Of a stretch of 64,000 nt of DNA, positions 8,016-63,143 are shown piece after piece. Numbering within the stretch: the first letter of the stretch is position 1; each line of letters opens with the position of its first letter. Under the pieces are notes generated by a model. That model was not told the origin of the DNA. It worked only from the letters and a program-made list of their open reading frames with translations, and made no database searches. Origin of the DNA: a virus (Duplodnaviria > Heunggongvirae > Uroviricota > Caudoviricetes); IMG/VR virus record IMGVR_UViG_3300045988_149737. One strand, written 5' to 3'. The position numbers and the translations under genes are program-made.

Positions 8016-8659
8016 TGGATTACCGGATTGGGATCACTGGTGCTCAGGGCAGTGGGAAAACAACCCTGGCTAAATATATCGACAAACATTACGGAATCCC
8101 TTACGTGGATGCTGGTGTCGGAAGTTTGATGAGCCGCCTCGGTGTTCGAGTAGGTGATTCTATGCCTCTATATGAGCGGCTTCAGATTCAAATGGAAATA
8201 GCAAAGCATATAGAGCTACTTACGCGTGGTGTTGAAGGCTTTGTTATCGATCGCACACCTGCTGATGTTATGGCCTACACGTTGGATTTGGTCGGCCATA
8301 CCAATGAAGATCGGTGTATTGAGTTAGCCCTCGATATCGAAAAGTTTTGCCACAAAACTGCTATTTCAAACTTTAACGCCATTGCTGGCTTACGCCCGGG
8401 AGTCGCTCTCTCAGAGCGAGATTACTTGCGATCACAACGAGCATCATTAGACCGTCTGTATGTCGCTCGTATTGATGCGTTGATGTGCGGGGAACTGACA
8501 AAAATTCACCTGCATCCGCAAAGGGGAGATCTGCAAACCTTCGTCGTTTCCAACCGATATCGCACAGTTGAAGCAAGAGCCAGATCAGTAATGAGAATGC
8601 TCGATAACGCGGTAGAAAAGATAGAAAACCTCTTCTGTGGCCGAGTGACCGTTCATTAG
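8015..8659 (+). CDS. P-loop NTPase, putative (deoxy)nucleotide kinase
   Basis: Walker A GITGAQGSGKTT near N-terminus; size and context (after DHFR/TS/RNR) fit a dNMP-kinase-like enzyme. Exact activity unknown. Confidence 0.55.
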   Translation: MDYRIGITGAQGSGKTTLAKYIDKHYGIPYVDAGVGSLMSRLGVRVGDSMPLYERLQIQMEIAKHIELLTRGVEGFVIDRTPADVMAYTLDLVGHTNEDRCIELALDIEKFCHKTAISNFNAIAGLRPGVALSERDYLRSQRASLDRLYVARIDALMCGELTKIHLHPQRGDLQTFVVSNRYRTVEARARSVMRMLDNAVEKIENLFCGRVTVH

Positions 8660-19160: not shown

Positions 19161-19279
19161 ACGCTACAAATCCTTCTGCGTGAATAAATAAAGGCCATAA
19201 GTTGTGGCCTTAAATAAATTGTTTTCTGCCTTTTCTTATTTGTGAAAATAACCACAACTAGAAAACAACGGAGTTAAGA

Positions 19280-19921
19280 ATGTCTAGTATTTCCGAAGCA
19301 CATATGTTCGCCGCTGGCGCTCATGGTGGCGTTGGTCAGAAAAGAAAATATACCGGCGAAAACTACATCAACCACCCGGTTGCTGTCCGAGAGATTGTTG
19401 CATTGCATGACGGAACCGTGGAGATGCAAATCGCGGCGCTTCTGCATGATGTGGTCGAAGACACCCATGTAACCATAGAGATGGTTCGTGATCACTTCGG
19501 TGAGCGCGTAGCTGAAATGGTTCAGGCTCTGACCAACATTGCAAGGCCAGAAGACGGCAATCGAATACAGCGTTTCATCATCAATGTCCGGGAGCTGGAG
19601 CAAAATCTCGACATGCAGACGCGCATGATCAAGCTGGCTGACCTGCTCGACAATACCTCTTCTATCGTGAGTCGCGATCCTGAGTTTTCAGCTATCTACC
19701 TTGCAGAGAAAGAGCTGATGCTGGACGTACTTTTTAACGGGAAGGAGATTGGTGCCAACGCTGATGTTGTCGAGTACATGGAGAGGATAGGTATAGAACA
19801 CCCGTTGTTATTAAGCGCAAAGGCGAAAGTCACTGAAGGTATTGCGCTTCTGAAACCGGTACACATCAAACGTTATGAAAAACACAAATCGCTGATCTGG
19901 AGCGCGTGGGAGGCTGCATGA
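19280..19921 (+). CDS. Rel/SpoT-like HD-domain hydrolase (putative (p)ppGpp hydrolase)
   Basis: YINHPVAVREIVALHDG ... AALLHDVVEDT ... EMVRDHFGERVAEMVQALT is collinear with the hydrolase domain of Rel/SpoT enzymes; no synthetase domain. Confidence 0.8.
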   Translation: MSSISEAHMFAAGAHGGVGQKRKYTGENYINHPVAVREIVALHDGTVEMQIAALLHDVVEDTHVTIEMVRDHFGERVAEMVQALTNIARPEDGNRIQRFIINVRELEQNLDMQTRMIKLADLLDNTSSIVSRDPEFSAIYLAEKELMLDVLFNGKEIGANADVVEYMERIGIEHPLLLSAKAKVTEGIALLKPVHIKRYEKHKSLIWSAWEAA

Positions 19922-20460
19922 AGGTCGAAAAAATAGATGTTCTTTCCTTTGTGCTGACGGATCTGGAACGCCTCGATCCGGTTCGAGTGATGATTGAAAA
20001 CTACGAACCTGGTAAGGGAAGAATCACCATCACCTGCTACGGAAAAGCGTGGACTGCGGCTTGGTTTGCTATGGGCGGTGATGATGTGCAGACGTTCATT
20101 AAGCGAGTTAGCAACGATTATCTAATCGACAATTTCGACCCTCAACTGCTAAGCACGGTCGACGATGACAACGATGCAAATCTGCTTTTCGTAAAGTCAG
20201 AAATCATAAAGTTACGAAGAGAGAGAGAAATAGACGCCGTACTGGCTCGCGAAATGTGGGACGAGGCGGAAAACGCCGATGACGTAAAAGAAAGCTGCTG
20301 TTGTTTCGGCGTCGGTAACAAACTGCTGAATCTCTTTGGTGATGATCCGTGGTATGCCGACTGGCCAACGGTACCAAACCCGAAATACCAGTATCTGGAA
20401 CGCATTGTGAACGCGGTACGTGAAGGGCTGAAAGAGTTAGATAAGTTAGAGGCATCGTAA
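19918..20460 (+). CDS. hypothetical protein
   Basis: ATGA overlap with upstream stop. Confidence 0.45.
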   Translation: MKVEKIDVLSFVLTDLERLDPVRVMIENYEPGKGRITITCYGKAWTAAWFAMGGDDVQTFIKRVSNDYLIDNFDPQLLSTVDDDNDANLLFVKSEIIKLRREREIDAVLAREMWDEAENADDVKESCCCFGVGNKLLNLFGDDPWYADWPTVPNPKYQYLERIVNAVREGLKELDKLEAS

Positions 20461-20903
20461 TGAGAGAGAAAATCAAGAACCCGGTCGTCGTATTGTATAA
20501 ACGGGAAACCAGCGATTCTTATGCGGTATCCATCACTGATGGAAGCCAGAACATGCACGATGGTCTGCTAATGGCCTCCGTATCTCCTGATGATTCTGAC
20601 TACCCTTTCGCCACTTTCGCTATGGTTGGTTACTACATGGCTGCCGAAATTGAGAAGTTGCGTGTTGAGCTGGAGACCGTTAAACAGCGGGAAAAGGATC
20701 TGTTTATGGAAAATGTTCGACTTAAGTCAGGTATAGCAGGTCTGATACACCTCGGTATTCGATATGCGGATGTCGAAGTCATGAAAATAGCTGGAGATGC
20801 CCAGCTTTCTACTCCCTGTACTGACAGCATCATAAACAGTATTGCATCAGGCGTTTTCACCAAAGAGGGTCAGCATGATGAGAACAGTAGAAGTTCGCGC
20901 TGA
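20460..20903 (+). CDS. hypothetical protein
   Basis: 147 aa; start overlaps upstream stop. Confidence 0.45.
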   Translation: MREKIKNPVVVLYKRETSDSYAVSITDGSQNMHDGLLMASVSPDDSDYPFATFAMVGYYMAAEIEKLRVELETVKQREKDLFMENVRLKSGIAGLIHLGIRYADVEVMKIAGDAQLSTPCTDSIINSIASGVFTKEGQHDENSRSSR

Positions 20904-23181: not shown

Positions 23182-23571
23182 ATGGGCTTCCCTTCTCCTG
23201 CGGCGGATTATGCTGAGAGCCGTATTTCTCTTGATCAGCAGATAATTAGACATCCTTCAGCGACCTACTTCATGAGGGCAGCTGATAGTCATCATCGTGA
23301 GGGAATATTACAGGGTGCATTGCTGGTGGTCGATTCCTCACTTACCCCGGTTGATGGTTCTCTGCTTGTATGCGCTCTGGATGGGGAATATCGCGTAAAA
23401 AGATACCGGAAGTATCCACGTCAGCATCTGGAGGATTTAAGAACCGGTAAGAAGGAAGCATTGCCAAAGGATGACGATGGATGCACGGGCAGCAATGCCG
23501 TGTTTGGTGTGATCACTCACATTATCAACGACGCAAGAAGTGGCGAGTTTGATGATTGTCCCGTGATGTAG
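23182..23571 (+). CDS. UmuD'-like peptidase S24 protein (HumD-like, lacks N-terminal arm)
   Basis: 129 aa; begins MGFPSPAADY, i.e. at the position of the UmuD Cys-Gly self-cleavage site; Ser (AADSH) and Lys (VKR) at the catalytic dyad positions; SOS box upstream; no umuC-like gene follows. Confidence 0.75.
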   Translation: MGFPSPAADYAESRISLDQQIIRHPSATYFMRAADSHHREGILQGALLVVDSSLTPVDGSLLVCALDGEYRVKRYRKYPRQHLEDLRTGKKEALPKDDDGCTGSNAVFGVITHIINDARSGEFDDCPVM

Positions 23572-23608: not shown

Positions 23609-24709
23609 TCACACTGCGCGGAATGCGATTTCGCCAGGTATTACTTCACCTTGCCAATACATTTGGGCAGCAACGCGATCTGCGAGGTCACGATAAATAG
23701 CCGTAAATTCGCTATCTGGACGACTAATAACGGTTGGTGTTCCGTTATCCAGATCTTCACGAAGTGAGATATGAAGTGGCATTTGGCCTAACAACAGCGT
23801 GTTGTATTTCTCGGCCAGTTTCTGTGCGCCACCAGTGCCAAAAATTGGCTCGTGATGACCGCAGTTACTGCAAATATGCACACTCATGTTTTCGACGATA
23901 CCCAGTACCGGCACTTCGACTTTTTCGAACATCACAATGCCTTTCTTCGCATCGATCAGCGCGATGTCTTGCGGCGTAGTTACCACAACCGCACCAGTTA
24001 CAGGAATGTTCTGCGCCAGCGTCAACTGAATATCACCAGTGCCCGGCGGCATATCGAGAACGAGATAGTCCAGATCAGGCCACAGTGTTTCTTGCAACAT
24101 TTGCATCAACGCCTTGCTCGCCATAGGGCCACGCCACACCATCGCGTTGTCGTCAGTGACCAGATAACCAATTGAATTGGTTGCCAGGCCATGAGACATA
24201 ATAGGTGCCATGTGAGTACCGTCTGGTGAGGTTGGACGTTGGTTTTCCGCGCCCAGCATGGTTGGAATTGATGGCCCGTAGATATCGGCATCAAGAATGC
24301 CAACTTTCGCACCTTCAGCGGCTAACGCCAGCGCAAGGTTTACCGCCGTGGAAGATTTACCTACCCCACCCTTGCCTGAGCTGACGGCGATAATGTTCTT
24401 AACGCCATTAATGCCTGGTTGGTTTTTAACGCGCTTCAGCGTGGCAATGTTGTGAGACAGCTTCCAGTCGATAGCCTTTGCACCAGTGATACGGAGCAGA
24501 TCACCACTACATTGCTCTTTCAGGTCTTCAAAAGGCTTATTCCACACGAAAGGCATGATTAGTTCGACATGCAGTGTGTCATCCATCAACGCAACATGGT
24601 GTAACGCTTTAAGCGTAGTCAGGTTGTGTTTCAGGGTTGGGTGCTGAAAATTAGCCAGCGTACCGGCTACCATTGCTCTCAGGGCATCCGGCGATTTGGA
24701 CTCGCTCAT
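23609..24709 (-). CDS. apbC: iron-sulfur cluster carrier ATPase ApbC/Mrp
   Basis: 366 aa; P-loop SSGKGGVGKSS, CxxC (CSNCGH); collinear with my recollection of enterobacterial Mrp; divergent from metG as in E. coli; RBS aggag. Confidence 0.9.
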   Translation of the reverse strand: MSESKSPDALRAMVAGTLANFQHPTLKHNLTTLKALHHVALMDDTLHVELIMPFVWNKPFEDLKEQCSGDLLRITGAKAIDWKLSHNIATLKRVKNQPGINGVKNIIAVSSGKGGVGKSSTAVNLALALAAEGAKVGILDADIYGPSIPTMLGAENQRPTSPDGTHMAPIMSHGLATNSIGYLVTDDNAMVWRGPMASKALMQMLQETLWPDLDYLVLDMPPGTGDIQLTLAQNIPVTGAVVVTTPQDIALIDAKKGIVMFEKVEVPVLGIVENMSVHICSNCGHHEPIFGTGGAQKLAEKYNTLLLGQMPLHISLREDLDNGTPTVISRPDSEFTAIYRDLADRVAAQMYWQGEVIPGEIAFRAV

Positions 24710-24866
24710 CCCGTCTCCTTTATTTTAATTTGCGCAATTGTCGCCTTGTAGTGTACTCCAGCTACGACATTTAATCATTTATGAGAAATGCTGTTATCAC
24801 ATGGCAGACATAAGGCCATTTTGTTACTATCAAGCCCCTTTTCACTACAAAGAAGTAATGCCTACT

Positions 24867-26900
24867 ATGACCCAAGTCGCGAAGAAAATTCTGGTGACGT
24901 GCGCGCTGCCGTACGCTAACGGCTCAATCCACCTCGGCCATATGCTGGAGCACATCCAGGCTGATGTCTGGGTTCGTTACCAGCGAATGCGCGGCCACGA
25001 GGTTAATTTCATCTGTGCCGACGATGCCCACGGTACGCCGATCATGCTGAAAGCACAGCAGCTTGGTATCACACCGGAGCAGATGATTGGCGAAATGAGT
25101 CAGGAACACCAGACTGATTTCGCAGGCTTTAACATCAGCTATGACAACTATCACTCGACGCACAGCGAAGAGAACCGTCAGTTGTCTGAGCTTATCTATA
25201 CTCGCCTGAAAGAGAACGGTTTTATTAAAAACCGCACTATCTCTCAGTTGTACGACCCGGAAAAAGGCATGTTCCTGCCGGATCGTTTTGTAAAAGGCAC
25301 CTGCCCGAAATGTAAAGCGCCAGATCAATACGGCGATAACTGTGAAGTCTGCGGCGCAACATATAGCCCGACTGAATTGATCGAGCCGAAATCGGTGGTT
25401 TCTGGCGCTACCCCGGTAATGCGTGATTCCGAACACTTCTTCTTTGATCTGCCTTCTTTCAGCGAAATGCTGCAGGCATGGACCCGCAGCGGCGCGTTGC
25501 AGGAGCAGGTGGCGAACAAAATGCAGGAATGGTTTGAATCCGGCCTGCAACAGTGGGATATCTCCCGCGATGCGCCTTACTTCGGTTTTGAAATTCCGAA
25601 CGCGCCGGGCAAATATTTCTACGTCTGGCTGGACGCGCCGATTGGCTACATGGGTTCCTTCAAGAATCTGTGCGACAAGCGCGGCGATACCACCAGCTTC
25701 GATGAATACTGGAAGAAAGACTCCACCGCCGAGCTGTACCACTTCATCGGTAAAGATATTGTTTACTTCCACAGCCTGTTCTGGCCTGCCATGCTGGAAG
25801 GCAGCAACTTCCGCAAGCCGACCAACCTGTTTGTTCATGGCTATGTGACGGTGAACGGCGCGAAGATGTCCAAGTCTCGCGGCACGTTCATTAAAGCCAG
25901 CACCTGGCTGAATCATTTTGACGCTGATAGCTTGCGCTACTACTACACCGCGAAACTCTCTTCGCGCATCGATGATATCGACCTGAACCTGGAAGATTTC
26001 GTTCAGCGCGTGAATGCCGATATCGTCAACAAAGTGGTTAACCTGGCCTCCCGTAATGCAGGCTTTATCAACAAGCGTTTTGACGGCGTGCTGGCAAGCG
26101 AACTGGCTGACCCTGAACTGTACAAAACCTTTACCGATGCCGCTGAAGTGATTGGCGAAGCATGGGAAAGCCGCGAATTTGGTAAAGCTATCCGTGAAAT
26201 CATGGCATTGGCTGACCTGGCTAACCGCTATGTCGATGAACAGGCTCCGTGGGTGGTGGCGAAGCAGGAAGGTCGCGATGCCGATCTGCAAGCGATTTGC
26301 TCTATGGGCATTAACCTGTTCCGCGTGCTGATGACGTACCTGAAACCGGTACTGCCGAAACTGACTGAACGTGCGGAAGCGTTCCTGAATACGGAACTGA
26401 CCTGGGATGGTATCCAGCAACCGCTGCTGGCACATAAAGTGAATCCGTTCAAAGCACTGTATAACCGCATCGACATGAAGCAGGTTGAAGCACTGGTGGA
26501 AGCATCCAAAGAAGAAGTGAAAGCCACCGCCGCGCCAGTTACTGGCCCGCTGGCTGATGATCCGATTCAGGAAACCATCACCTTTGACGACTTCGCCAAA
26601 GTTGACCTGCGTGTGGCACTGATTGAAAACGCGGAGTTTGTTGAAGGCTCTGACAAACTGCTGCGTCTGACACTGGATCTCGGTGGTGAAAAGCGTAATG
26701 TCTTCTCCGGCATCCGTTCTGCTTATCCAGACCCACAGGCACTGATTGGTCGTCACACCATTATGGTGGCTAACCTGGCTCCGCGTAAAATGCGCTTCGG
26801 TATCTCCGAAGGCATGGTGATGGCTGCTGGCCCTGGCGGAAAAGACATCTTCCTGTTAAGCCCGGATGCCGGTGCTAAACCAGGCCACCAAGTTAAGTAA
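24867..26900 (+). CDS. metG: methionyl-tRNA synthetase
   Basis: 677 aa from ATG at 24867 ([30 protein letters not shown]); matches E. coli MetG as I recall it; ORF track start at 24738 is an upstream in-frame extension. Confidence 0.95.
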
Positions 26901-32660: not shown

Positions 32661-32709
32661 CTGAGAAGAGGGCCAGAAACGGCCCTTTCTCTATAGCCAC
32701 CAGCTGCCG

Positions 32710-32800
32710 CAGGGAAATTTTCAGAAACGGCGAGGAACGCATTCATGAGCCGACGGGGAACGGCCAGGATTTTTTCGGGAAACGGCTGCATTCGCCTTTA
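32710..32800. repeat. second array of GGGAAACGGC-type repeats
   Basis: cagggaaatttt / cagaaacggcg / ggggaacggcc / gggaaacggctg; same core as 28675-28815. Confidence 0.55.
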
Positions 32801-33274
32801 TATAGAAAAAACATCGGGAAGCTGGTGGAATCCAACCAGCGGTTGTCGGACAGGTGAGCGGGGAAAATTATGATGACTTTCGTCGCCTGAGACATCCAGA
32901 TTTCTTTCGTAGCGTAATCACATATGTGATTAAGTGGTGTGATTATGTGAAAAATCACGCGCACATAATACGCGAGCGGATACGGAACAAAACAAAATGC
33001 CGATCCGCGCCGACAATTAAACGCGGATCATAAAGCAAGAATAAAAGCCAATGATTAACCATACACCATAGCGCAATATAACGCGTTTTAAGCGCGTTAA
33101 TGTGTTGAGTAATGGGTATGTACTGGTAAGGATATAAAAGCGCGTCTGTGGCGTTATTTTGGCGCTTATTTTATGTTGTTGGAGTGAGTCAAAGACAATA
33201 AAAAAGCGCCATCATTGGCGCGTTATGGTGGAAGTATTAGAAACGAAAAAAGCGCCCATAGTGGGCGCTAGATT

Positions 33275-33505
33275 TTATTTATGTAAACTGATTTCAAATC
33301 CCATTTCTACAAACGCTTTTAACATTAAAAATATATCAGCGTCATTCACGTCTGCTTTTTTTCGCTCCTGGTCGCTCAATAAGTCAATTTTGCGCGTCGT
33401 TTCATCGATAAACTCGACTGCGCGCCCAGCGTAACCAGCGATCCCAGCGATGCGATTAACAAAATATTCATTGCGCACGTTAACGCCAGAGATAAGAATA
33501 AACAT
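33275..33505 (-). CDS. hypothetical small protein
   Basis: 76 aa; flanked on both sides by minus-strand hairpin terminators (gcgccca-tag-tgggcgc at ~33250 and ~33525). Confidence 0.45.
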   Translation of the reverse strand: MFILISGVNVRNEYFVNRIAGIAGYAGRAVEFIDETTRKIDLLSDQERKKADVNDADIFLMLKAFVEMGFEISLHK

Positions 33506-33552
33506 GATTAAGCTCCTTAAAAGCGCCCATAGTGGGCGCCAGATTCCATTAA

Positions 33553-34203
33553 TTACGCTTTGAAAGCATCAGCCAGATAGTTATAGAAATCATTTTTAAT
33601 AAAGCGATATTGCTGCGTACCAGCTTTTGCGCTTCCCATTCCTTTGACTTTCTCAACAAGTCCAAGACGTTCGCAAAGATTGATAAGCTGGTTGGCTTGA
33701 GTGTATCCTGCGTCTAATTTTATTTCGTTGGCTTTTTTCGCTTCATTCATTAAATCGAAAACAGCGCCATTTGTGAACGTCTCGATCTCGTCGTTAATCA
33801 TATCGATTAATGCGAATACACGAGATCCGGACATATCAGCGACGGAATAAACACACTTTCCAGCTTTAATGGATTTAACCAGATAAACCAGTTTTTCCAG
33901 AGAGTAACTATTAGCCATTGCATCACGGAAAAATACTTCTGGCGCTTGTTTGCTTGCTTTGATCGCATAGTAGAAAACAGAGCACAATTTTTCGTCTTCT
34001 ACAGCGTTTACAACGTTGTTGATGAAGTAAGCAAGTTTAGTGGTCGCAGCTTGCATATTTGCTTTATCTGCTTTGGTGTGCGTACCATTTTTATAATGTT
34101 CGTTATATGTTTGAGTTGCCAGATCTGCTTTTTCGCGCAGTTCATCGGATACAATGGAAGCAGCTTCAACGATGGATTTTTTAGAAATGATAATGTTAGC
34201 CAT
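33553..34203 (-). CDS. hypothetical protein
   Basis: 216 aa; RBS aaggaaa 7 nt upstream on minus strand; lower GC than surrounding phage genes. Confidence 0.55.
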   Translation of the reverse strand: MANIIISKKSIVEAASIVSDELREKADLATQTYNEHYKNGTHTKADKANMQAATTKLAYFINNVVNAVEDEKLCSVFYYAIKASKQAPEVFFRDAMANSYSLEKLVYLVKSIKAGKCVYSVADMSGSRVFALIDMINDEIETFTNGAVFDLMNEAKKANEIKLDAGYTQANQLINLCERLGLVEKVKGMGSAKAGTQQYRFIKNDFYNYLADAFKA

Positions 34204-34486
34204 GATAATTTTTCCTTATGTAAATTTAAAATTTATTGTCGTTAGCGTCTTCGCTTTCGACGAGTTCAATTATCGATATGCGAAAAAAGATTGCAAGTGT
34301 TTTTTTAAAATTTTTTGCAGGGATGAAAGTCCTAGAAATAAAAGCGAGATCGTCGAAGGTGTTCCCTAAATAAATAATCGATTCCGGCTTTAGACCTTAT
34401 ATATATTTAGGTTATTTGATTTATAGATATAAAGAAGTGATGTGAAAAATAATAACCGGACTTAGCCGGTTATTAACCTTATAGAT

Positions 34487-34795
34487 TTATTGAACAGACT
34501 CTACAGCCTTACGATTGGTGTCAAATAGCGCATCAACGAACTGTGCCGATGACTCGCTAGATTCGCAATCCAACATTGCCCGTTCTTCATTTGCCACTTT
34601 CTTACACAGTTCCACACTCTCACCTATCGCTTTTCCTGCTTTTACGGCTGCCGAAAATTGATACATGCAAACTGATACATTCTGAGACGTTGAGCACACG
34701 TCATTCATCAGCGACTGAATGACAGGCTTATAGTCCATTGCATTTGCCGCAACTGAGCAAAGTAAAAATAATGGTGGTAACAATATCGATTTCAT
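34487..34795 (-). CDS. small secreted protein (predicted signal peptide)
   Basis: N-terminal MKSILLPPLFLLCSVAANA; start overlaps upstream stop; terminator hairpin taaccgg-acttag-ccggtta downstream. Confidence 0.5.
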   Translation of the reverse strand: MKSILLPPLFLLCSVAANAMDYKPVIQSLMNDVCSTSQNVSVCMYQFSAAVKAGKAIGESVELCKKVANEERAMLDCESSESSAQFVDALFDTNRKAVESVQ

Positions 34796-34798
34796 AAC

Positions 34799-35323
34799 TC
34801 AAAAAGGCAAAATTCGTTCAACCCAATCGAACAAAACAACTATTTTTCTACCGTTCTCGACACGTAGTGTAACCTGACAAGCATCTGCGCCTGCTGACAC
34901 CCCCTCAATTTCACGGCCATCCGCCATGTACACCCTTATAGATTTGTTTGCTTTGTAGGCTTGGTTGCAAATTGCAAAAAAATCGCGGCGTGATGGCCGA
35001 TTATCGACATAATCAGGGTGAACTGTTAGTCGACCTTTGAAATCGTGAGCGATACTGTCAACCACACCTGATTCAATTGTACTAATGCGTTCAAGTGGGA
35101 GCCTTATACGATTTTCTTTGTCAAAAGGGGCTGGGCAAAGGTCAACTTTGTTACGAGATGGCATGAGGCCATAAACGTACATGCAAAACGCCTGGCCATC
35201 TTCGAGAGTGACCCTTACAGGAATTTGTTCTCTGCGCCAGAACATCAGTAGTTTTTCAACGTTAGTGTAATCTCGCGGCCAGAGTTCAGCTTGGATACCG
35301 TAGGTAATATCTTTGGTTGTCAT
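34799..35323 (-). CDS. hypothetical protein
   Basis: 175 aa from ATG at 35323, 4 nt after the lipoprotein stop; ORF-track version to 35401 overlaps the lipoprotein gene. Confidence 0.5.
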   Translation of the reverse strand: MTTKDITYGIQAELWPRDYTNVEKLLMFWRREQIPVRVTLEDGQAFCMYVYGLMPSRNKVDLCPAPFDKENRIRLPLERISTIESGVVDSIAHDFKGRLTVHPDYVDNRPSRRDFFAICNQAYKANKSIRVYMADGREIEGVSAGADACQVTLRVENGRKIVVLFDWVERILPF

Positions 35324-35327
35324 GTCA

Positions 35328-35792
35328 TCACAGAGTTGTTGGCAGAATGTCGATGTCACCAGAATTGCTGGTGAACACCCTGAACGCTTTTGTGTCTCCA
35401 TTCTTCAGAGTCGTTTCTCGCTCTTGACGAGCGGGGTTTAGAGCACATAAACCTGCACCTTCAAGAGATGCACCCACAATTAATTCTCCGGCATTTAAAT
35501 GAAAAGTCGCTTTTTCGCCTGTAGCCAGTTTTGCGACAGTTTCGCCATTGATGAAAATGGAAGCATCACATCCAGCTCCTACAAAACCTGTGTCTCTCAT
35601 TACCACCAACGTAGCTGGCGCTGCGCTTTGATACTTGAACACTTTGGCCTGCGGTGCTGGTTTGGCGTCATGGATTGATATTGGACGTGATTGGCACGCG
35701 GTAAGCATCAACACTGGTAACGTTAGTAGAGGGAGAAGCGAGTGTTTCATGTTAGTTTTAGAACAGAAAGTGAACAGTATGGGAGACTTCAT
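35328..35792 (-). CDS. putative lipoprotein
   Basis: Lipoprotein signal MKHSLLPLLTLPVLMLTAC (lipobox LTAC) if started at internal Met (35750); RBS agggaga supports the upstream Met at 35792. Confidence 0.55.
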   Translation of the reverse strand: MKSPILFTFCSKTNMKHSLLPLLTLPVLMLTACQSRPISIHDAKPAPQAKVFKYQSAAPATLVVMRDTGFVGAGCDASIFINGETVAKLATGEKATFHLNAGELIVGASLEGAGLCALNPARQERETTLKNGDTKAFRVFTSNSGDIDILPTTL

Positions 35793-35818
35793 CTTTGTCT
35801 CCCTAATTGATAGCGTGA

Positions 35819-36097
35819 TTATTTTAATCTGCTTAATAGCGTTTCGAGATCTTCCTTTGTCATATTAGAGTTCTCATAGATACGCATGATTTTCTCACGA
35901 GTCTTAGCGGAAGCCCCGACAGAAGATATAACCTTGTCAAAGTCGGCCATTGTCAATTGTTCCAGAATGGTATTTATGACTTCAGCCTTAGACATTTTGA
36001 TATTTTTTTCTTTTAGTTTCACTTGAAACTTTCCAAGTTTGTCATTGGCCTTATCAGACAATGCTACCTGACAGTAAGTTGTTTTCTTTTCACTCAT
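35819..36097 (-). CDS. hypothetical small protein
   Basis: 92 aa, directly downstream of the helicase gene. Confidence 0.5.
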   Translation of the reverse strand: MSEKKTTYCQVALSDKANDKLGKFQVKLKEKNIKMSKAEVINTILEQLTMADFDKVISSVGASAKTREKIMRIYENSNMTKEDLETLLSRLK

Positions 36098-36099
36098 AA

Positions 36100-37659
36100 C
36101 TAATCTCGTTTCAGAACTCCAAAATCGAATGCTCCATCAATAGGCAATACACCTTCTGCAAAGCCAGGTGTGGTGTCGATGATGTGTTTTCGCTCATAAG
36201 AGTGAGACAACAGGTATTTGTTGCTAATGTCAATGAAATCAGTGATAAAACACACGTTTGCCTGATTTTTTTTTGCTCGTAAGCCACGACCGACACGCTG
36301 TCTCATTTCAACTTCTGCTTTCCCACCACCAGCAAGAATGACCGCACCAACGCTTGGCACATCAACACCGACATCCAGAATAGTCGAGCCTATTAAAACA
36401 TCTATTTCACCAGACGCTAAACTATTCAGCTTTGCTTGCCTTGTCGTCTGGTTAGATTCCCCATAGATGAAATCAACTTTAAGACCTGACTCCTTCATCA
36501 TCTCCATCAGGATTTGCCCGTGGCGTTTAAGACGAACCAGAGTCATGCAGTTGAGTGAATGTTGCTTATAAAGCAATGCCTCGCGCACTATGGCCTCGTT
36601 ACGTCCCAAATTATACACGATCCCCAACTGATAAGCCTTTTGGTAGGCGGTGCTCATACCAACTCTAAAATTGAGGTGTTTGTTGGCAAGTTCGGCCTTG
36701 ATTCTGGCCTCGTCTGGCTTGTAGGCAACTTTATGATAAAGGAAGTACGGCTTTGCCAGAATGCCTCGATCAATCAGGTACTTTTCTGTGACTTTAATTT
36801 CAATTCGCCCGGCCACCGCCATCAGGCGCATGTTGGCTTCCGTCGAATCCTTCATGAACGGCGTGGCTGTAAGCGCCAGACGATAGTCTGCGTTCACACA
36901 TAATCTGGCGATGTCATAGAAATTTGAGCCTGAAGACTCATGCGCCTCTTCCAGAATAAGAAGAGAGACACTTGAAAGGAAGCGTTTCACCAACTCCCGA
37001 CGTTTGAGGTGGTAGCTTTTCTTATCTGGTGTTGCATCGCGTGGTGGTTCTTCGAGGAAACTTGCAAGAGTTTGAACTGTAGCGACGTTGATATGTCGTG
37101 ATACCTGGAACTCACCCGAGCCAATGACTCCAACCTTTTGGTCTTTTAACCACGGTTCGCCATTTTCGGCGCGGTAGTCGATGGATCTCTGGAAGTTTTC
37201 GGCCATTTGAAACATCAGAACAGAGCGGGTTGTTAAAAATAATGTCATTCGACCGATACGTGCAGCTGCTTTGCAGGCAACGTTAGATTTCCCGCCACCA
37301 GTAGCGATCTGCGCAATCATCATTCCCTCTCGAACCAGTGTTTCCACAGTCTGATCCTGATACGCATAATCAGGATTGTATGGGAATGGGTTAACCGCTG
37401 GATTTGGTTTACCAAGCGCCGGGGCTTTGTCTTTGCGGATATGAACACATTTGATGCCCGCCTTGTTCAAGTTCGCCGCTACAGGCTTGGCAAAGCCAGC
37501 AGGGAACGAGTTTTTACTCCAGTTGAACATCGTGCTTGTGCCCTTCCAGTCGCCAGTCTCGACTTCGTAGCTCAACATTTGCTGCACCAGTTGCTTTACC
37601 TTGTCATCTGCGCCAGAAATAAGCGCATTTACTGCGTTAGATACAATCCGAACAGTCAT
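36100..37659 (-). CDS. superfamily 2 helicase (DEAD/DEAH-box-like)
   Basis: Walker A IATGGGKS, motif II LILEEAHE, motif III TATP, motif VI RVGRGLR; RBS aaggaaagagg. Confidence 0.8.
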   Translation of the reverse strand: MTVRIVSNAVNALISGADDKVKQLVQQMLSYEVETGDWKGTSTMFNWSKNSFPAGFAKPVAANLNKAGIKCVHIRKDKAPALGKPNPAVNPFPYNPDYAYQDQTVETLVREGMMIAQIATGGGKSNVACKAAARIGRMTLFLTTRSVLMFQMAENFQRSIDYRAENGEPWLKDQKVGVIGSGEFQVSRHINVATVQTLASFLEEPPRDATPDKKSYHLKRRELVKRFLSSVSLLILEEAHESSGSNFYDIARLCVNADYRLALTATPFMKDSTEANMRLMAVAGRIEIKVTEKYLIDRGILAKPYFLYHKVAYKPDEARIKAELANKHLNFRVGMSTAYQKAYQLGIVYNLGRNEAIVREALLYKQHSLNCMTLVRLKRHGQILMEMMKESGLKVDFIYGESNQTTRQAKLNSLASGEIDVLIGSTILDVGVDVPSVGAVILAGGGKAEVEMRQRVGRGLRAKKNQANVCFITDFIDISNKYLLSHSYERKHIIDTTPGFAEGVLPIDGAFDFGVLKRD

Positions 37660-37706
37660 AAACCTCTTTCCTTAGTGCCTTTTGTATGTTATTTGGCTAT
37701 TATAAT

Positions 37707-37722
37707 AAGTAAGTGATTACTT
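37707..37722. promoter_or_regulatory. palindrome AAGTAA-gtga-TTACTT (family 2) in divergent intergenic region
   Basis: Between minus-strand helicase and plus-strand ParB-like gene. Confidence 0.4.
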
Positions 37723-37741
37723 AGTGGATTGTAGCAATAAA

Positions 37742-38422
37742 ATGGATGTAAAAATCACGATTTTGCAGGTTGATGTTGCCAACCTTCGCCCGAATACCTG
37801 GAACACCAATTCGGTTGGTGCGCAGAATTTTGAAAAACTGAAAGGTTCTATCGAAAAATTGGGCTTTTTTAAGCCAATTTTGGCTCGTGAACTTGAAGAT
37901 GGATTTTTTGAAATCCTCGGCGGCGAACATCGCTGGCGTGCCGCTATTGAGCAAGGAATTTCAACGGTTCCGGTGCTTTCTGTGGGCAAAATTAGCGATG
38001 TCGTAGCTAAACAGATGTCACTGGTGGACAACGAGCGATACGGTGAAGACGACCAAATCGCATTGCAACGCTTCATTGAAGAAATTCAGTCAGAACTTGA
38101 CTATCAACTGTCTGAAATCGCCCCGTATGACGACGAAATCTCGATGGTTTTAGCAAAAGAGGCTGCAATCGACCTTGAAGCACTGGAGGCGTTGTCTCGT
38201 GGTAGTGATGAGCCTGTCGATACCGACAAACGAGAGAAAACCGAACGTGTGGGTGCGGAACATCAGACCATGCGCTTCAAAGTAACTTTCGATGCGTCAG
38301 ATCGTGTTGCAGAAACCATAAAAAACATCATCAAAGAGCAGGCTATTAACACCGGTAATGAAATGGAGAACGCTGGTGAGGCTCTGGTGTGGCTGGTCGA
38401 CTACTACAAGGAGCGTATGTAA
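37742..38422 (+). CDS. ParB/Srx-like N-terminal domain protein 1
   Basis: FEILGGEHRWRAAIEQGISTVPV matches the ParB N-domain arginine-rich motif; ATG at 37742 (ORF track GTG at 37724). Confidence 0.7.
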   Translation: MDVKITILQVDVANLRPNTWNTNSVGAQNFEKLKGSIEKLGFFKPILARELEDGFFEILGGEHRWRAAIEQGISTVPVLSVGKISDVVAKQMSLVDNERYGEDDQIALQRFIEEIQSELDYQLSEIAPYDDEISMVLAKEAAIDLEALEALSRGSDEPVDTDKREKTERVGAEHQTMRFKVTFDASDRVAETIKNIIKEQAINTGNEMENAGEALVWLVDYYKERM

Positions 38423-39090
38423 TGACCAAAAAGTTTGAAATCGTATATCGCGACCCGGCAGATCTTATTCCCTATGAGATGAATGCCAAAAAGCATGATG
38501 AACAGCAGATCAGAGATCTGGCCGCAGCCATTAAAAAGCGCGGATTTGACCAGCCAATTACGGTCGATAAGAACGACGTAATTATTACTGGCCACGGCCG
38601 CCGTGAGGCTGCAATTTTTGCTGGACTTGAGCGTGTACCGGTTATTGTTCGTGATGATCTGAGTGATGACGAGGTACGTGCAAAGCGCCTTGAAGATAAC
38701 CGACTTGCCAGCATTGATTACGATGCAATTAAGCTACAGAAAGAGCTTGAGTCGCTTGTTCTGGACGATATCGAGGTTTTCGGCTTTGAAGAGCGTGAGT
38801 TGAATGTTCTTGTTGGCAGTATGACAGAAGAAATGGACACCGACTCGCTAGTTATCGATCTTGGCGAAGAAACTAAACGACAGAAGGATGAACACACCGA
38901 GATCAGTCGCGAAGTTGCAGCGGAAGAAGTACGTGTTGTCGACGTATTGGGCTTTAAAACGCTTCCTGCTGGCTCTGCCATTGTTGTTGGTGATTTGCTT
39001 GCCCACATGGAAGAAATGACGGGAGAAAGCGGGGTAGACGCATTTGTGGCATATGCGGAGAAGATCTCTTCCGGGGAGATGGCTGCATGA
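38422..39090 (+). CDS. ParB/Srx-like N-terminal domain protein 2
   Basis: IITGHGRREAAIFAGLERVPVIV; taATG overlap with upstream gene, RBS aaggag. Confidence 0.7.
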   Translation: MTKKFEIVYRDPADLIPYEMNAKKHDEQQIRDLAAAIKKRGFDQPITVDKNDVIITGHGRREAAIFAGLERVPVIVRDDLSDDEVRAKRLEDNRLASIDYDAIKLQKELESLVLDDIEVFGFEERELNVLVGSMTEEMDTDSLVIDLGEETKRQKDEHTEISREVAAEEVRVVDVLGFKTLPAGSAIVVGDLLAHMEEMTGESGVDAFVAYAEKISSGEMAA

Positions 39091-39725
39091 GCAAATACAT
39101 CATCAACGTATCGTTTCAGACTCGCGTAAATAAAACCACGCGCACGCTGGAAATCGCCGAGTCGTTCGGGCTTGGTCTGGACGAAAAAGAGTGGGCGCTT
39201 TACGACAATCTGGAGCTGGAAGTAAAGCAGGGCGATGTGGTGTACATCACCGGCCAATCCGGTTCAGGTAAATCCGTTGTGTTGCGCGAGCTGCAACGCC
39301 AGATGAAGGATGAAGGGCTTTCTGTAGCTTCTATTGATGACTTTACCTTCGATAATGAGGTTAACGTCATTGATCAACTGGGCAAAACTACCAGTGATGC
39401 GCTTGGGTTGTTATCTATGGCCGGATTGAATGACGCCTATCTCTTTGTGCGTAAGCCATCCGAGATGTCTGACGGCCAGAAATACCGTCTCAAGATCGCC
39501 AAGCTGATCGAGTCCGGCGCGAAAGTCTGGGCTGCCGACGAATTTGGCGCTGTTCTCGACCGTGTAACCGCCCAGGTTGTGGCGTCGAACCTCCAGCGTG
39601 CCGCCCGTAAGGTTGGTGCGACGGTAATGGTGGCGACGACCCACGAAGACCTGAAGAACGCGCTGCGCCCGGATATGCAGATCACCAAGCACTACAAAGA
39701 ACGCGTGAAGGTGGAATATGCCTGA
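39087..39725 (+). CDS. soluble ABC-type ATPase
   Basis: Walker A GQSGSGKS, signature-like SDGQKYR, Walker B/D-loop VWAADEFGAVLD, H-loop TTHED; no permease gene adjacent. Confidence 0.7.
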   Translation: MSKYIINVSFQTRVNKTTRTLEIAESFGLGLDEKEWALYDNLELEVKQGDVVYITGQSGSGKSVVLRELQRQMKDEGLSVASIDDFTFDNEVNVIDQLGKTTSDALGLLSMAGLNDAYLFVRKPSEMSDGQKYRLKIAKLIESGAKVWAADEFGAVLDRVTAQVVASNLQRAARKVGATVMVATTHEDLKNALRPDMQITKHYKERVKVEYA

Positions 39726-39972
39726 TTTGAAGATCGTAGAGCTGAAGCCATCGAAAGAGGCTGACAACAACAACGTTGAAGTCATCCGCCTGCTGGAAGA
39801 AGCACTCCAGTACGCCAGAGAAGGCAAAAGCCAGAGCCTGGCACTGCTGATGATCAACAACGACGGCAGTGTGCTGGATTGCTGGCATAACGGTGGGCGT
39901 CCATACGTCATGGTTGGGGCGATGGAATCGCTTCGCCTGGACTTCATCAATGCCAATATCGAGCGTAGGTGA
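39718..39972 (+). CDS. hypothetical small protein
   Basis: 84 aa; start overlaps upstream stop. Confidence 0.4.
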   Translation: MPDLKIVELKPSKEADNNNVEVIRLLEEALQYAREGKSQSLALLMINNDGSVLDCWHNGGRPYVMVGAMESLRLDFINANIERR

Positions 39973-40868
39973 TCGACATGACAGGCATCATCATCAAACG
40001 CTACCGCCCGGAAGAGTTCCCGCGTCATCTGGACTTTCTGGAGCGTATGACCGTTACCAAAGGCACGGTTGAAGACTGGCACGCGCTGAAGTCGCTGCAC
40101 TACAAGACGGATGGTAAGCCGTTCGCGCCAACGTATTATCGCTGCGAACTGGACGACCGGCTGGTGGGCGTAGTGGTTATGGCTTACCCGAAACTGCTGC
40201 TGGCGCCTCGCCATCGCATGTTTCCTAAGCTGAAGCCAACCACCAATACCACCGTGGCCAACCAGTATTGGGGCCGGTACGTGAACAACAACTTTGCCGT
40301 GATCAGCCGTTCCGTTGTTGACACTCAGTACCGCGGTGTCGGCGTCTCCTATCGAATGATTAACCTGGTTAGCAGGATGCACGACCGGCCAATCATCGAG
40401 ATCCAGTCGTCGATGAGCAAATACAACCCGTTCGCCATGAAAGCAGGGTTCCAGTTCATCCGTCCGGAGCGTCCGAAGAGCTATGAGAGTGCGTTGCGCG
40501 TCTTCCAGCGTCATTTCCGTTCTGACCCTGGCGACAACGAAGCGATCGTCAAAGAGCTGTTCGCCATGAGTGAGTCTCGCCGTCGTCGTGCGCTGCGTGA
40601 TCTGGTCGCTGACTACCACAAGAACAGTTCCCTGGCCAAAGCCGGGCGTAATCGTGGCACGACGATTCAGGACATTGCCGACAGCCTGGTGGACGAGGCC
40701 AGCATTGTGAAGCTGCTCAAGGACATTCACAACCTGAGCTTTACGTCTCCGTTGTATGGTGTGTACCGAAACCCTGACTTTGGTCGTCGACTGCCTGACA
40801 CGCTGCCACTGCTGGCATTCGACAAACAACCTTTGGATAAACCGTTAGAAATTGCTTTACCGGCATAA
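39969..40868 (+). CDS. hypothetical protein, possible GNAT-like fold
   Basis: VVDTQYRGVGVSYRMINLV resembles the GNAT acetyl-CoA-binding motif; weak. GTG start, alternative ATG at 39978. Confidence 0.4.
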   Translation: MIDMTGIIIKRYRPEEFPRHLDFLERMTVTKGTVEDWHALKSLHYKTDGKPFAPTYYRCELDDRLVGVVVMAYPKLLLAPRHRMFPKLKPTTNTTVANQYWGRYVNNNFAVISRSVVDTQYRGVGVSYRMINLVSRMHDRPIIEIQSSMSKYNPFAMKAGFQFIRPERPKSYESALRVFQRHFRSDPGDNEAIVKELFAMSESRRRRALRDLVADYHKNSSLAKAGRNRGTTIQDIADSLVDEASIVKLLKDIHNLSFTSPLYGVYRNPDFGRRLPDTLPLLAFDKQPLDKPLEIALPA

Positions 40869-40877
40869 GGATTTGCC

Positions 40878-41144
40878 ATGACGTTAACCGATAAACAAAA
40901 GGACATCATCAAAACGCTCAATCTAGGTTATGAGCGAGGTCATCTACTTGATCTGGACGAATTGCTTGAAGTTTTGCCGTACAAGACAACAAAGCAAAGT
41001 ATCCAGTTCTCAATTCGCGCTCTGATAAAAAAGGGGCTGGTGGAGAAAGGGCATACGCGCCAACGCATTGACAATCGCTATCACCGCCGAACTCTTGGGT
41101 TAACCACTTTAGGTCGAGCCAAAGCGAAGTTACTGGTGATGTAA
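40878..41144 (+). CDS. hypothetical small protein, possible winged-helix DNA-binding
   Basis: 88 aa; RBS aagga. Confidence 0.4.
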   Translation: MTLTDKQKDIIKTLNLGYERGHLLDLDELLEVLPYKTTKQSIQFSIRALIKKGLVEKGHTRQRIDNRYHRRTLGLTTLGRAKAKLLVM

Positions 41145-63050: not shown

Positions 63051-63143
63051 TTGTGGAAAAAAATAATCATTTCTGTAAAAATAGGTAGGTACTAACTTAA
63101 TGGTGGGCATGGAACGCCCACCATATCTAGGAGCAAAGGATAA

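Follow-up and report, generated by a model that had tools for sequence, protein, structure and literature searches.

We identified an orphan homolog of FljA, the repressor of phase-1 flagellin, within a block of seven tightly packed minus-strand genes (33275-37659) of an Escherichia coli phage-plasmid of the SSU5/pHCM2/pMT1 type, analysed here over a stretch of 64,000 nucleotides (the window; Table 1). Comparison with relatives indicates that the block is very probably a backbone module of these elements in which a swappable cassette is embedded. Taken as a whole, we lean towards reading it as a two-operon backbone module that carries a lysogenic-conversion cassette and an RNA-binding repressor which probably silences host flagellin. 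No paper addressing these genes was found in the literature searched. The initial annotation had described seven genes on the strand opposite to their surroundings, among them an SF2 helicase, a lipoprotein and a signal-peptide protein, with terminators of their own. These calls held up: all ORFs were reproduced at the same coordinates, the helicase core domains were confirmed, an LTAC lipobox and a signal peptide are visible in the sequence, and a hairpin with a T-run lies after both the gene for the 102-aa secreted protein (34475-34450) and p76 (33269-33251). The seven genes form the sole multi-gene minus-strand cluster, both in a greedy ORF map and in the RefSeq annotation of a plasmid 98.8% identical to the window, which served as annotation reference; apbC was the only further annotated minus-strand gene within positions 1-49884 of the window.

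Table 1. Coordinates of genes and control elements in and around the minus-strand block
Feature	Coordinates	Strand	Basis
SF2 helicase, 519 aa, operon 1 first gene	36100..37659	-	Pfam, PHROG, PDB
p92, small basic/acidic helical protein	35819..36097	-	phrog_1466 (5.3e-46)
Hypervariable cassette	34490..35843	-	p92 3' end to conserved terminator; relatives compared
Lipoprotein, 154 aa, slot 1	35328..35792	-	phrog_890 'lipoprotein' (1.2e-51)
Orphan FljA-family protein, 174 aa	34799..35323	-	PF03614
Secreted protein sec102, 102 aa, slot 2	34487..34795	-	phrog_9536 (1.5e-54)
p216, backbone protein, operon 2 first gene	33553..34203	-	phrog_1513 (8e-139)
p76, small protein, operon 2 second gene	33275..33505	-	phrog_1585 (4.5e-38)
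Divergent control region, helicase operon / ParB-ParB-ABC ATPase-terminase module (plus)	37660..37741	.	Sequence read
Operon 1 intrinsic terminator	34450..34475	-	TAATAACCGGCTAAGTCCGGTTATTA then T-run
Intergenic control region, conserved	34204..34449	-	Promoter-like site and invariant blocks
Bidirectional intrinsic terminator	33251..33269	.	AGCGCCCACTATGGGCGCT, T-runs on both strands

As read from the sequence, the block consists of two operons: operon 1, which starts at 37659 and closes with the terminator at 34450, and operon 2, comprising p216 and p76 behind a candidate sigma-70 promoter. Promoters were assigned as consensus matches only. The minus strand of the divergent control region, whose ParB boundary was set as in the RefSeq reference plasmid, contained a TATAAT box and, preceding the helicase ATG, the Shine-Dalgarno sequence AAGGAAAGAGG; there was no canonical -35, so the helicase promoter is a putative one. 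The stem of the operon 1 terminator was invariant, with variants confined to loop and tail, in six relatives compared and in 9 of 10 in a second set. The 250-bp intergenic control region that follows had a mean column identity of 81% with long invariant blocks among E. coli, Salmonella, Yersinia and Klebsiella elements, and contained the promoter-like site of operon 2 (TTGCAA-16 nt-GATAAT, 34296-34269); covariation gave no support for an RNA structure in it (covariation term +1.5). The bidirectional terminator closes operon 2 as well as the convergent plus-strand genes. In total, 15 terminator-like sites were detected in the region, compared with 5.4 +/- 2.5 expected.

The helicase, p92, the FljA-like gene and p216 were found in about 815-1036 plasmid records and were syntenic in all enterobacterial relatives examined (SSU5, pMT1, Klebsiella, K. 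oxytoca, Kluyvera and Buttiauxella). The arrangement in which a ParB-ParB-ABC ATPase-...-terminase series diverges from the helicase was observed in E. coli, Salmonella, Yersinia, Klebsiella, Acinetobacter and Aeromonas elements. The p92 gene, which starts 2 nt past the helicase stop, is fast-evolving (38-100% identity among relatives) and is present in all of the enterobacterial relatives. Its product had no match in Pfam, NCBIfam or PDB, and neither had p216, which was found in 815 plasmid records and shows 49-99% identity with dN/dS of 0.06-0.17 in all enterobacterial relatives having the region. The second gene of operon 2, p76, occurs in E. coli-type elements and pMT1 (49%), SSU5 and Klebsiella elements carrying an unrelated 67-aa gene instead; no PDB match was detected for it.

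The first gene of operon 1, a core backbone gene present in 1036 plasmid records, encodes a predicted UvsW/XPB-like SF2 enzyme. An SF2 core with a ResIII/DEAD N-lobe (Pfam ResIII, 1.1e-14; DEAD, 2.1e-14) and Helicase_C (4.3e-13) was present, as in T4 UvsW, archaeal XPB and Rad25. The protein matched phrog_16 'DNA helicase' (2.3e-93) and, among solved structures, XPBII (1.7e-12), Rad25 (1.3e-8) and T4 UvsW (2.3e-8); no NCBIfam equivalog threshold was reached. The likeness to T4 UvsW is limited to the C-terminal RecA-like domain (residues 338-485), and the N-terminal ~95 residues had no match. The counterpart in phage Cyrano was labelled 'UvsW helicase' by its depositors, and Cyrano also carries genes annotated as UvsY, gp32-like SSB and RecA/UvsX-like. 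Two other roles were considered for the helicase and rejected. A DnaB-like helicase and a primase are annotated elsewhere on the element, which argues against a replicative helicase. Its PADLOC matches (PbeA, 6.7e-23; mREase_IV; DruE; DpdF) reflect the generic SF2 core only, and the partner genes of these systems are not adjacent, which argues against a defence protein; the NCBIfam defence model dnd_restrict_1 scored 59 bits against a cut-off of 600. Across the block, the helicase alone matched PADLOC-DB and no specific defence system was found, two sub-significant matches of p92 (E about 0.006-0.008) being discounted.

Downstream of p92, conservation is interrupted. The window and Cyrano were 95.8% identical up to 34489 and 97.1% identical from 35844; between these positions only the FljA-like gene aligned (77.7%), and the cassette was one of only seven window segments without a match of at least 90% in Cyrano. 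A Klebsiella pair (L005/L006) repeated the pattern. Synonymous divergence (dS) reached 1.35 in the FljA-like gene, compared with 0.11 in the helicase, 0.07 in p216 and 0.02 in ParB. Judging from these alignments, the cassette is exchanged by recombination between otherwise near-identical phage-plasmids.

Two genes of the cassette encode predicted envelope proteins. The lipoprotein has a signal peptide with a lipobox (…PVLMLTAC/QS, Gln at +2), whose Cys was invariant in 15 homologs, and an all-beta mature part. A Shine-Dalgarno sequence (GGGAGA) precedes the 154-aa start, and an alternative start at 35750 would give 140 aa. The protein scored 17.8 bits against DUF2846 (PF11008), below the cut-off of 34.3, and its AF2 model was unusable (pLDDT 52). 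It was found in 421 plasmid records, was missing from Cyrano and most Klebsiella elements, and its homologs lie mostly on contigs that, at 100-120 kb, match these phage-plasmids in size. The second protein, sec102, has a signal peptide (…SVAANA/MD, cut after ANA) and four Cys residues in its mature part; it was present in 259 plasmid records and had no match in Pfam or PDB. Its gene starts 3 nt past the FljA-like stop and is wedged in front of the conserved terminator; the invariant motif ATCTATAAGGGTAATAACCGG, which directly follows the FljA-like stop in relatives, here follows the sec102 gene. The FljA-like gene in turn starts 4 nt past the lipoprotein stop, and since the cassette genes are only 3-4 nt apart, they are probably translationally coupled. 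In relatives, the two slots hold other lipoproteins, secreted or membrane proteins. The lipoprotein and sec102 thus represent facultative envelope cargo that fits moron-type conversion or exclusion genes, although a role in exclusion itself is doubtful. Known phage morons and lipoprotein exclusion genes include lambda bor/lom, T5 llp and phi80/N15 cor. Like phage morons, the cargo consists of small, low-GC envelope genes which vary in presence and sit immediately ahead of a terminator, with conserved genes on either side. However, neither protein has sequence or fold similarity to the products of bor/lom, llp or cor, and, in contrast to morons built as independent promoter-gene-terminator units, the cargo is apparently co-transcribed and translationally coupled with a regulator.

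This presumed regulator is the most informative gene of the block and had been missed in the initial annotation. A longer ORF (34799-35401) would encode 200 aa, and the true start gives 174 aa, similar in size to Salmonella FljA (179 aa). The protein matched PF03614 ('Repressor of phase-1 flagellin') over profile positions 1-170 of 170 (E 2.5e-84, 281.7 bits, cut-off 24), and aligned along its full length with Salmonella FljA (P0127, for which the sources give the name 'phase 1 flagellin gene repressor FljA [Salmonella enterica]') with 36% identity over 171 aa (E 1e-37), sharing the motifs WPRDY, PSRRD(F/Y)F and FDWV-RI. Both genes reside on mobile or phage-derived DNA. The predicted structure has two tandem Hfq/Sm-like domains; unlike Hfq, a homohexamer of single domains, two Sm domains would be fused in one chain, and identity to Hfq is only 13-21%. 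Members of the family control fliC mRNA at the post-transcriptional level, and E. coli lost its motility when fljA was supplied on a plasmid; fliC repression is the sole experimentally known activity of the family. It is therefore likely that the phage-plasmid protein is an RNA-binding post-transcriptional repressor.

Its genetic context differs from that of Salmonella fljBA, as it has neither an adjacent flagellin gene nor an invertase switch and sits in a phage-plasmid helicase operon, flanked by genes for a lipoprotein and a secreted protein. The annotation of the 98.8%-identical 108-kb plasmid shows neither flagellin nor invertase genes at 1-50000 and 54000-103883, and no fliC-leader-like sequence was detected in the window (score 27, null 26.2 +/- 2.2). 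Such orphan status, without a flagellin partner, is unlike every characterised fljA and speaks against host fliC as target. We further checked the occurrence of this gene and found it in 831 records, intact (at least 80% coverage) in 822 of them and under purifying selection (dN/dS about 0.1). Carriers included 341 K. pneumoniae and 62 Y. pestis records, i.e. organisms that make no flagella; in contrast to Salmonella FljA, the gene thus belongs to the core of these elements even where the host lacks flagella, and its allelic diversity is far greater. Alleles were 33-100% identical within one host species, while one allele recurred across genera. Sequence diversity of PF03614 resides almost wholly on 100-120 kb contigs, genuine FljA forming a single cluster at 50% identity.

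These observations suggest how the module might work. The UvsW/XPB-like helicase would open operon 1 as part of a T4-style recombination/replication gene set, with p92 translationally coupled to it, and transcription would then enter the cassette, whose fixed component is the FljA-like protein and whose flanking slots are optional envelope genes. The FljA-like protein may bind an mRNA leader and block translation, as Salmonella FljA does with fliC mRNA. Host fliC as its main target is a tentative proposal, somewhat short of an even chance; it is the likeliest target where the host is motile, as E. coli is, and a host carrying the element would then make less flagellin and be less motile, a form of lysogenic conversion. 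The envelope proteins expressed together with it would change the cell surface, and superinfection exclusion could result. A precedent is found in prophage TldR flagellin-remodelling systems (Walker et al., Nat Microbiol 2026, PMC13418256), where lysogenic conversion relies on a repressor that the temperate element devotes to host flagellin expression. TldR derives from TnpB, is guided by RNA, represses transcription and is accompanied by a replacement flagellin, whereas the tandem-Sm FljA-family candidate would act post-transcriptionally and has no replacement flagellin.

The initial annotation had viewed all seven genes, helicase included, as a moron-type island gained by horizontal transfer and serving defence or superinfection exclusion. 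The opposite strand, lower GC, own terminators, envelope proteins and the similarity of the helicase to PbeA, type IV restriction enzymes and DruE/DpdF cores are consistent with such an island. However, four to five genes out of seven belong to the backbone and keep their synteny in all the enterobacterial relatives examined, the helicase extends to elements as distant as those of Acinetobacter and Aeromonas, and its PADLOC matches are generic, with partner genes not adjacent and no NCBIfam defence equivalog. Composition also argues against recent import. The whole block (43.0% GC, window 46.7%) ranks no lower than the 5th percentile; once the helicase is left out, it is the lowest 2.8-kb stretch of the window (40.8% GC, rank 0.001), and GC3 of the six genes downstream of the helicase was 0.36-0.42, compared with 0.48 +/- 0.06 in 57 other genes (Mann-Whitney p = 1.5e-5), whereas the GC and GC3 (0.485) of the helicase are typical of the window. 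An equal GC drop was present in SSU5, pMT1, Klebsiella, K. oxytoca and Cyrano; being common to all relatives examined, the low GC is ancestral to the module. An acquired island is thus very improbable, being already largely refuted by the comparative sequence data. What survives of the initial annotation is the AT-richness of the six genes past the helicase, and the moron-type character of the lipoprotein and sec102, facultative genes in a swapped cassette; the helicase is compositionally typical and, like p92, the FljA-like gene and p216, part of the backbone, and the supposed ORFans all fall in PHROG families, one being the FljA-family protein. A conserved replicative helicase with syntenic neighbours had been named as evidence against an island: conservation and synteny were found in all relatives examined, but the helicase is not replicative. 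It is similarly improbable that only the lipoprotein and sec102 matter, by receptor-masking exclusion of related phage-plasmids, with the FljA-like gene an inert or decaying passenger. T5 Llp and Cor are phage lipoproteins that block receptors, and the cargo resembles them in its variable presence and in the replacement of its slots by other lipoproteins, secreted or membrane proteins. However, Pfam, PADLOC and structure comparisons gave no homology or fold evidence tying either protein to known exclusion proteins, and the FljA-like gene, being intact and under purifying selection, is not decaying.

A more serious, though still rather unlikely, alternative to host-flagellin silencing is that the FljA-like protein regulates the phage-plasmid itself by binding its own mRNA (lytic, replication or copy-number genes), possibly as an allele-specific 'RNA-level immunity', flagellin being irrelevant or secondary. 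That Klebsiella and Y. pestis elements keep the gene under purifying selection leaves room for a phage-internal target, and the gene is apparently co-transcribed with the core helicase, lacks a partner flagellin gene and has its family diversity nearly all on phage-plasmid-sized contigs. Divergent alleles swapped between near-identical elements are the pattern of immunity or specificity determinants; divergent alleles in one host and the same allele across genera would be unexpected if the target were a conserved host fliC leader. In addition, S. Typhi CT18 with pHCM2, which has a homolog, is presumably motile and expresses H:d, which counts against a host-fliC target. On the other hand, no candidate target was found, nor a fliC-leader-like sequence in the window; the conserved region adjoining the cassette shows no co-variation with the allele, nor is an RNA structure supported in it; none of the only six other segments that differ between the window and Cyrano is an obvious cognate site; a classical HTH repressor beside the integrase, and also an S24 peptidase, are present elsewhere on the element; and repression of fliC is the family's only experimentally known activity.

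More speculatively, FljA-type tandem-Sm proteins may primarily be phage-plasmid regulators, the hyperdiverse orphan copy being fixed in all SSU5-type elements of enterobacteria, that silence host flagellin on lysogeny or give allele-specific control or immunity at the RNA level, Salmonella fljA, beside the phage-type invertase hin, being a domesticated copy. If true, allele-specific control or immunity of the element would explain the retention of these genes in non-flagellated Klebsiella and Y. pestis.

All seven minus-strand ORFs of the block (helicase, p92, lipoprotein, FljA-like, sec102, p216 and p76) were present at the coordinates given, and they lie on the opposite strand to their surroundings, as the initial annotation had described: the only other minus-strand coding sequence within the window's first 50 kb was apbC. 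The block had also been considered AT-rich. This applied to the six genes downstream of the helicase, which had 40.8% GC, the lowest value of any 2.8-kb stretch in the window, and GC3 of 0.36–0.42 compared with 0.48 ± 0.06 in 57 other genes (p = 1.5e-5), but not to the helicase gene, which was compositionally ordinary (GC3 0.485). The block as a whole had 43.0% GC, versus 46.7% for the window. The proposed terminators were detected as hairpins with T-runs directly after the genes for the 102-aa secreted protein (sec102) and p76, and the block contained two transcription units, the second with a TTGCAA-16-GATAAT promoter match. The adjoining 614-bp non-coding stretch between convergent genes was dense in terminator-like hairpins on both strands. 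It was ~68% conserved in SSU5, had no Rfam match, and possibly contains small RNAs.

Coordinates of features in the window and in two compared loci
Position	Feature	Remark
19255-20653	Ea22/Eae-like gene cluster	differs from Cyrano
23182-23571	S24 (LexA/UmuD-like) peptidase gene	adjoins apbC/metG
23609-26900	apbC and metG	host-like cargo
32661-33274	non-coding stretch	614 bp
33269-33251	terminator-like hairpin	after p76, bidirectional
33221-33206	terminator-like hairpin	
33166-33150	terminator-like hairpin	
33030-33001	terminator-like hairpin	
32974-32958	terminator-like hairpin	
33275-37659	seven-gene block	minus strand
34204-34449	control region	upstream of p216
34296-34269	promoter match	second transcription unit
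34475-34450	terminator	after sec102
34490-35843	hypervariable cassette	BLASTN break points versus Cyrano, 34489/34490 and 35843/35844
34799-35323	FljA-like gene	174 aa, start by homologue alignment
37742-41144	ParB-like/ATPase module	
39718-39972	84-aa ORF	variable slot 39720-39977
41206/41207	ends of linear packaged Cyrano genome	Cyrano 108379 and 1
61496-64000	tail host-specificity protein (C-terminal part) and fibre gene start	70–76% identity to Cyrano
7889-8326 (L005)	slot-1 lipoprotein gene	K. pneumoniae plasmid NZ_CP073786.1
385158-397682 (L011)	diverged module copy	E. coli CP125919.1, 5.2-Mb chromosome

The 5-kb stretch around the block was 98.8% identical to E. coli plasmid NZ_CP061531.1 (IncFIB, 108 kb) and matched 725 plasmid records from Klebsiella, Escherichia, Enterobacter, Yersinia, Salmonella and others; its phage matches were Escherichia phages CMS-2020a and Cyrano and Salmonella phage SSU5. 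On sequence grounds, these plasmid and phage matches place the window within a phage-plasmid of the SSU5/pHCM2/pMT1 type. Gene layout was read from the annotation of the near-identical plasmid. Upstream of the block are genes of nucleotide metabolism and replication (nrdAB, thymidylate synthase, DHFR, methyltransferase, metG, apbC), and downstream is a ParB-ParB-ABC ATPase-terminase-portal-capsid-tail module, with RepA, a DnaB-like helicase, primase, DnaE and ligase encoded elsewhere on the element. Since the ends of the packaged Cyrano genome map to adjacent nucleotides of the window, the block is 3.5–8 kb away from the right end of the genome, shortly before the pac/cos region and the gene for the small terminase.

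Several other parts of the element were also observed. The module immediately preceding the terminase genes, small and large, codes for ParB-like, ParB/Srx-like and ABC-type ATPase proteins, a small ORF, then a 299-aa protein, which the Cyrano annotation gives as an ATPase with a fused acetyltransferase domain, and finally an 88-aa protein; it is kept from E. coli to Acinetobacter/Aeromonas elements and possibly has a packaging-linked role. Between its ABC ATPase gene and the next gene, the window, SSU5 and pMT1 have an 84-aa ORF that Cyrano lacks and in whose place some Klebsiella/K. oxytoca elements have a ~184-aa gene, which makes this site a second small variable slot. The host-like housekeeping cargo comprises an iron-sulfur carrier gene, apbC, and a full-length methionyl-tRNA synthetase gene, metG.

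We compared the region in Cyrano, SSU5, Y. pestis pMT1, two K. pneumoniae plasmids, K. oxytoca, Acinetobacter and Aeromonas plasmids and six further loci, using a presence/identity matrix. The helicase and its divergent ParB neighbour occurred in nearly all relatives, with 40–42% identity even in Acinetobacter/Aeromonas; the helicase was absent from a degraded chromosomal copy (L011). Genes for p92 and the FljA-like protein were found in every enterobacterial element examined, and p216 in all relatives whose sequence extends that far. The lipoprotein was present in some elements only, and sec102 was full-length in the window type only, with a 52-aa relic in one Klebsiella plasmid. Record counts in the plasmid collection were 1036 for the helicase, 831 for the FljA-like gene, 815 for p216, 421 for the lipoprotein and 259 for sec102. 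The module is a conserved backbone, and the interpretation of the whole block as an island was largely wrong. In every relative examined, the downstream genes had 38–44% GC versus 49–55% in the flank; because it is common to all of them, the low GC appears to be an old property of the module and not a sign of recent import. Two contigs with this enterobacterial module (L016 and L017, helicase 82–93% identical) came from MAGs labelled 'Bacillota bacterium' and 'Candidatus Fimivivens', labels that most likely reflect a binning error.

None of the seven proteins was an ORFan, as some had been called; all belong to PHROG families. The helicase contained ResIII/DEAD and Helicase_C domains, and its nearest solved relatives were archaeal XPB/Rad25 and T4 UvsW, the latter matching in the C-terminal lobe alone; no curated NCBIfam equivalog was reached. 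The depositors of Cyrano labelled it UvsW and also annotated UvsY, gp32-like SSB and RecA. By its similarities it is an XPB/UvsW-like SF2 helicase, with UvsW orthology unproven. Because Cyrano has these UvsY, gp32-like and RecA genes, and because a separate DnaB-type helicase and a primase are encoded elsewhere on the element, it is probably an accessory recombination/replication helicase; the DnaB-type helicase and primase ruled out a replicative helicase. The 154-aa lipoprotein had an LTAC lipobox (AF2 model with pLDDT 52), and the 102-aa protein had a cleavable signal peptide and four Cys residues in its mature part. No function could be assigned to p92, p216 and p76 by Pfam, NCBIfam and PDB sequence searches, and PDB sequence searches with these three, the lipoprotein, sec102 and the FljA-like protein gave 0 significant matches. 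An impression that p92 is a ribbon-helix-helix protein had no support from any tool and is not claimed. A defence-system assignment was also rejected: PADLOC and NCBIfam yielded only generic SF2-core matches for the helicase and no meaningful match for the other six proteins, and no part of the block corresponded to a known defence system.

Synonymous divergence was strongly mosaic. Between the window and Cyrano, dS was 0.11 for the helicase, 0.07 for p216 and 0.02 for ParB, versus 1.08 for p92 and 1.35 for the FljA-like gene; between the two Klebsiella plasmids it was 0.014 for the helicase and saturated for the FljA-like gene. Between the BLASTN break points, the FljA-like gene alone aligned to Cyrano (77.7%), and in the Klebsiella pair the break points were the p92 stop codon and the conserved terminator. 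Recombination swaps this cassette, one of only seven segments in the whole window with no match of at least 90% in Cyrano. Essentially no variation was seen in the terminator hairpin or in the motif before it, ATCTATAAGG. The motif follows the FljA-like stop codon in relatives and sec102 in the window; sec102 was thus inserted exactly between the FljA-like gene and the terminator. Gene junctions of 2–4 nt imply that translation is probably coupled. The two slots contained, in relatives, other lipoproteins, signal-peptide proteins, one membrane protein and cytoplasmic proteins with no Pfam match; the moron idea therefore suits the cargo of the 1.35-kb cassette, but not the other five genes.

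In one K. pneumoniae plasmid (L005), slot 1 had a 145-aa lipoprotein gene on the opposite strand. The sequence pattern of its mature part was like that of the window lipoprotein (…KYxxP…xxIVxRDxG…C…xxVDGExVAxxxxxEK…), and it looks like a distant inverted homologue undetected by tblastn. The largest other differences from Cyrano involved the tail host-specificity and fibre genes and the Ea22/Eae-like cluster.

Upstream of p216, the intergenic region was more conserved than neighbouring coding sequence when elements from E. coli, Salmonella, Yersinia and Klebsiella were compared (81% mean column identity). It contained long invariant blocks, e.g., ATTTATTTAGG-AACACCTTCGA and TCGATAATT, and an ATAAGG-containing motif occurred repeatedly: ahead of the terminator, in mid-region and at the Shine-Dalgarno site of p216. 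A conserved RNA structure was rejected, as the RNAalifold covariation term was positive (unfavourable) and the invariant terminator alone was convincing; because covariation gave no support to RNA structure, DNA-level operators are likely.

The FljA-like gene was initially seen as a 200-aa ORF with a strong full-length match to PF03614, 'repressor of phase-1 flagellin' (E 2.5e-84, 281.7 bits versus a cut-off of 24). Only 26 relatives emerged when 1.84 billion cluster representatives were searched exhaustively with HMMER. One of them (P0127), named by sources 'phase 1 flagellin gene repressor FljA [Salmonella enterica]', had 36% identity over 171 residues (E 1e-37). The gene is a genuine member of this family, and it evolves under purifying selection (dN/dS about 0.1 in every pair, including Klebsiella/Y. 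pestis elements). A Sm/Hfq-like fold is predicted for its product; a BFVD fold search matched single-domain Sm-like phage proteins only and found no full-length analogue. A species-genome scan for flagellin-linked relatives returned six phage-plasmid-type loci only, owing to DNA patterns that were too specific. The sole 'chromosomal' homologue (P0074, in L011) lies not in a flagellin island but in a degraded, syntenic copy of the module (ParB 73%, p92 48%, FljA-like 52%, p216 68% and p76 66% identity). With the helicase missing and only short genes called, L011 appears to be an integrated, decaying phage-plasmid. The FljA-like protein passed the sequence tests for the FljA family but failed the contextual one, linkage to a flagellin gene, and is best described as an orphan FljA-family member. 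Hundreds of records already contain these genes with annotation; one source, for instance, gave the name 'flagellar synthesis: repressor of fliC' to the copy on a pHCM2-sized S. Typhi contig of 106.7 kb.

The FljA-like protein would bind an mRNA leader and repress translation. Host fliC is the obvious candidate target in E. coli, and its repression would produce a less flagellated lysogen. Two precedents support such fliC repression: a plasmid carrying fljA made motile E. coli non-motile, and temperate phages repress host fliC via TldR, remodelling flagella (PMC13418256). A serious rival is that the protein acts on an RNA of the phage itself, because a single species has highly divergent alleles side by side and similar ones turn up in different genera, a pattern like that of a specificity determinant. 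In line with this, only 97 records had at least 95% identity for the FljA-like gene, versus 191 for the helicase. The gene also persists in hundreds of elements from Klebsiella and Y. pestis, bacteria that make no flagella, and no partner flagellin gene is annotated across positions 1-50000 and 54000-103883 of the near-identical plasmid. All four observations argue against a purely fliC-directed role.

A search for such an internal target found none. The E. coli K-12 fliC leader had no better-than-chance match in the window (27 versus 26.2 ± 2.2), and the p216 translation-initiation region was not distinctive in this comparison. The conserved control region had no covariation-supported RNA structure, an Rfam scan of the whole window gave 0 families at threshold, and no locus was obviously co-swapped with the cassette: whole-window comparison with Cyrano revealed six other variable segments, none an evident cognate site. 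A broader proposal seems to us rather unlikely: that FljA-type tandem-Sm proteins are first of all RNA regulators of phage-plasmids, and that Salmonella fljA is a domesticated descendant of such a regulator. A search of the accessible literature library found no paper discussing the function of these genes, the cassette or a Sm fold of FljA, and nothing relevant on FljA with SSU5, pMT1, pHCM2 or phage-plasmids, or on motility phenotypes.

Phage-plasmids of the SSU5/pHCM2/pMT1 type are common in clinical E. coli, Klebsiella, Salmonella and Y. pestis and are usually termed cryptic. The backbone status of the block removes the false lead of an imported defence island, and the small recombination-swapped cassette is a site where these elements vary their effects on the host cell surface. 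If the FljA homologue silences flagellin, carriage would alter motility, H-antigen expression, TLR5 recognition and sensitivity to flagellotropic phages, consequences that are easy to test, and the cassette with the orphan FljA gene offers a clean lead that is cheap to test. Should its targets instead be RNAs of the element itself, the FljA homologue would represent a new type of Sm-fold phage regulator, with implications for how Salmonella phase variation arose.
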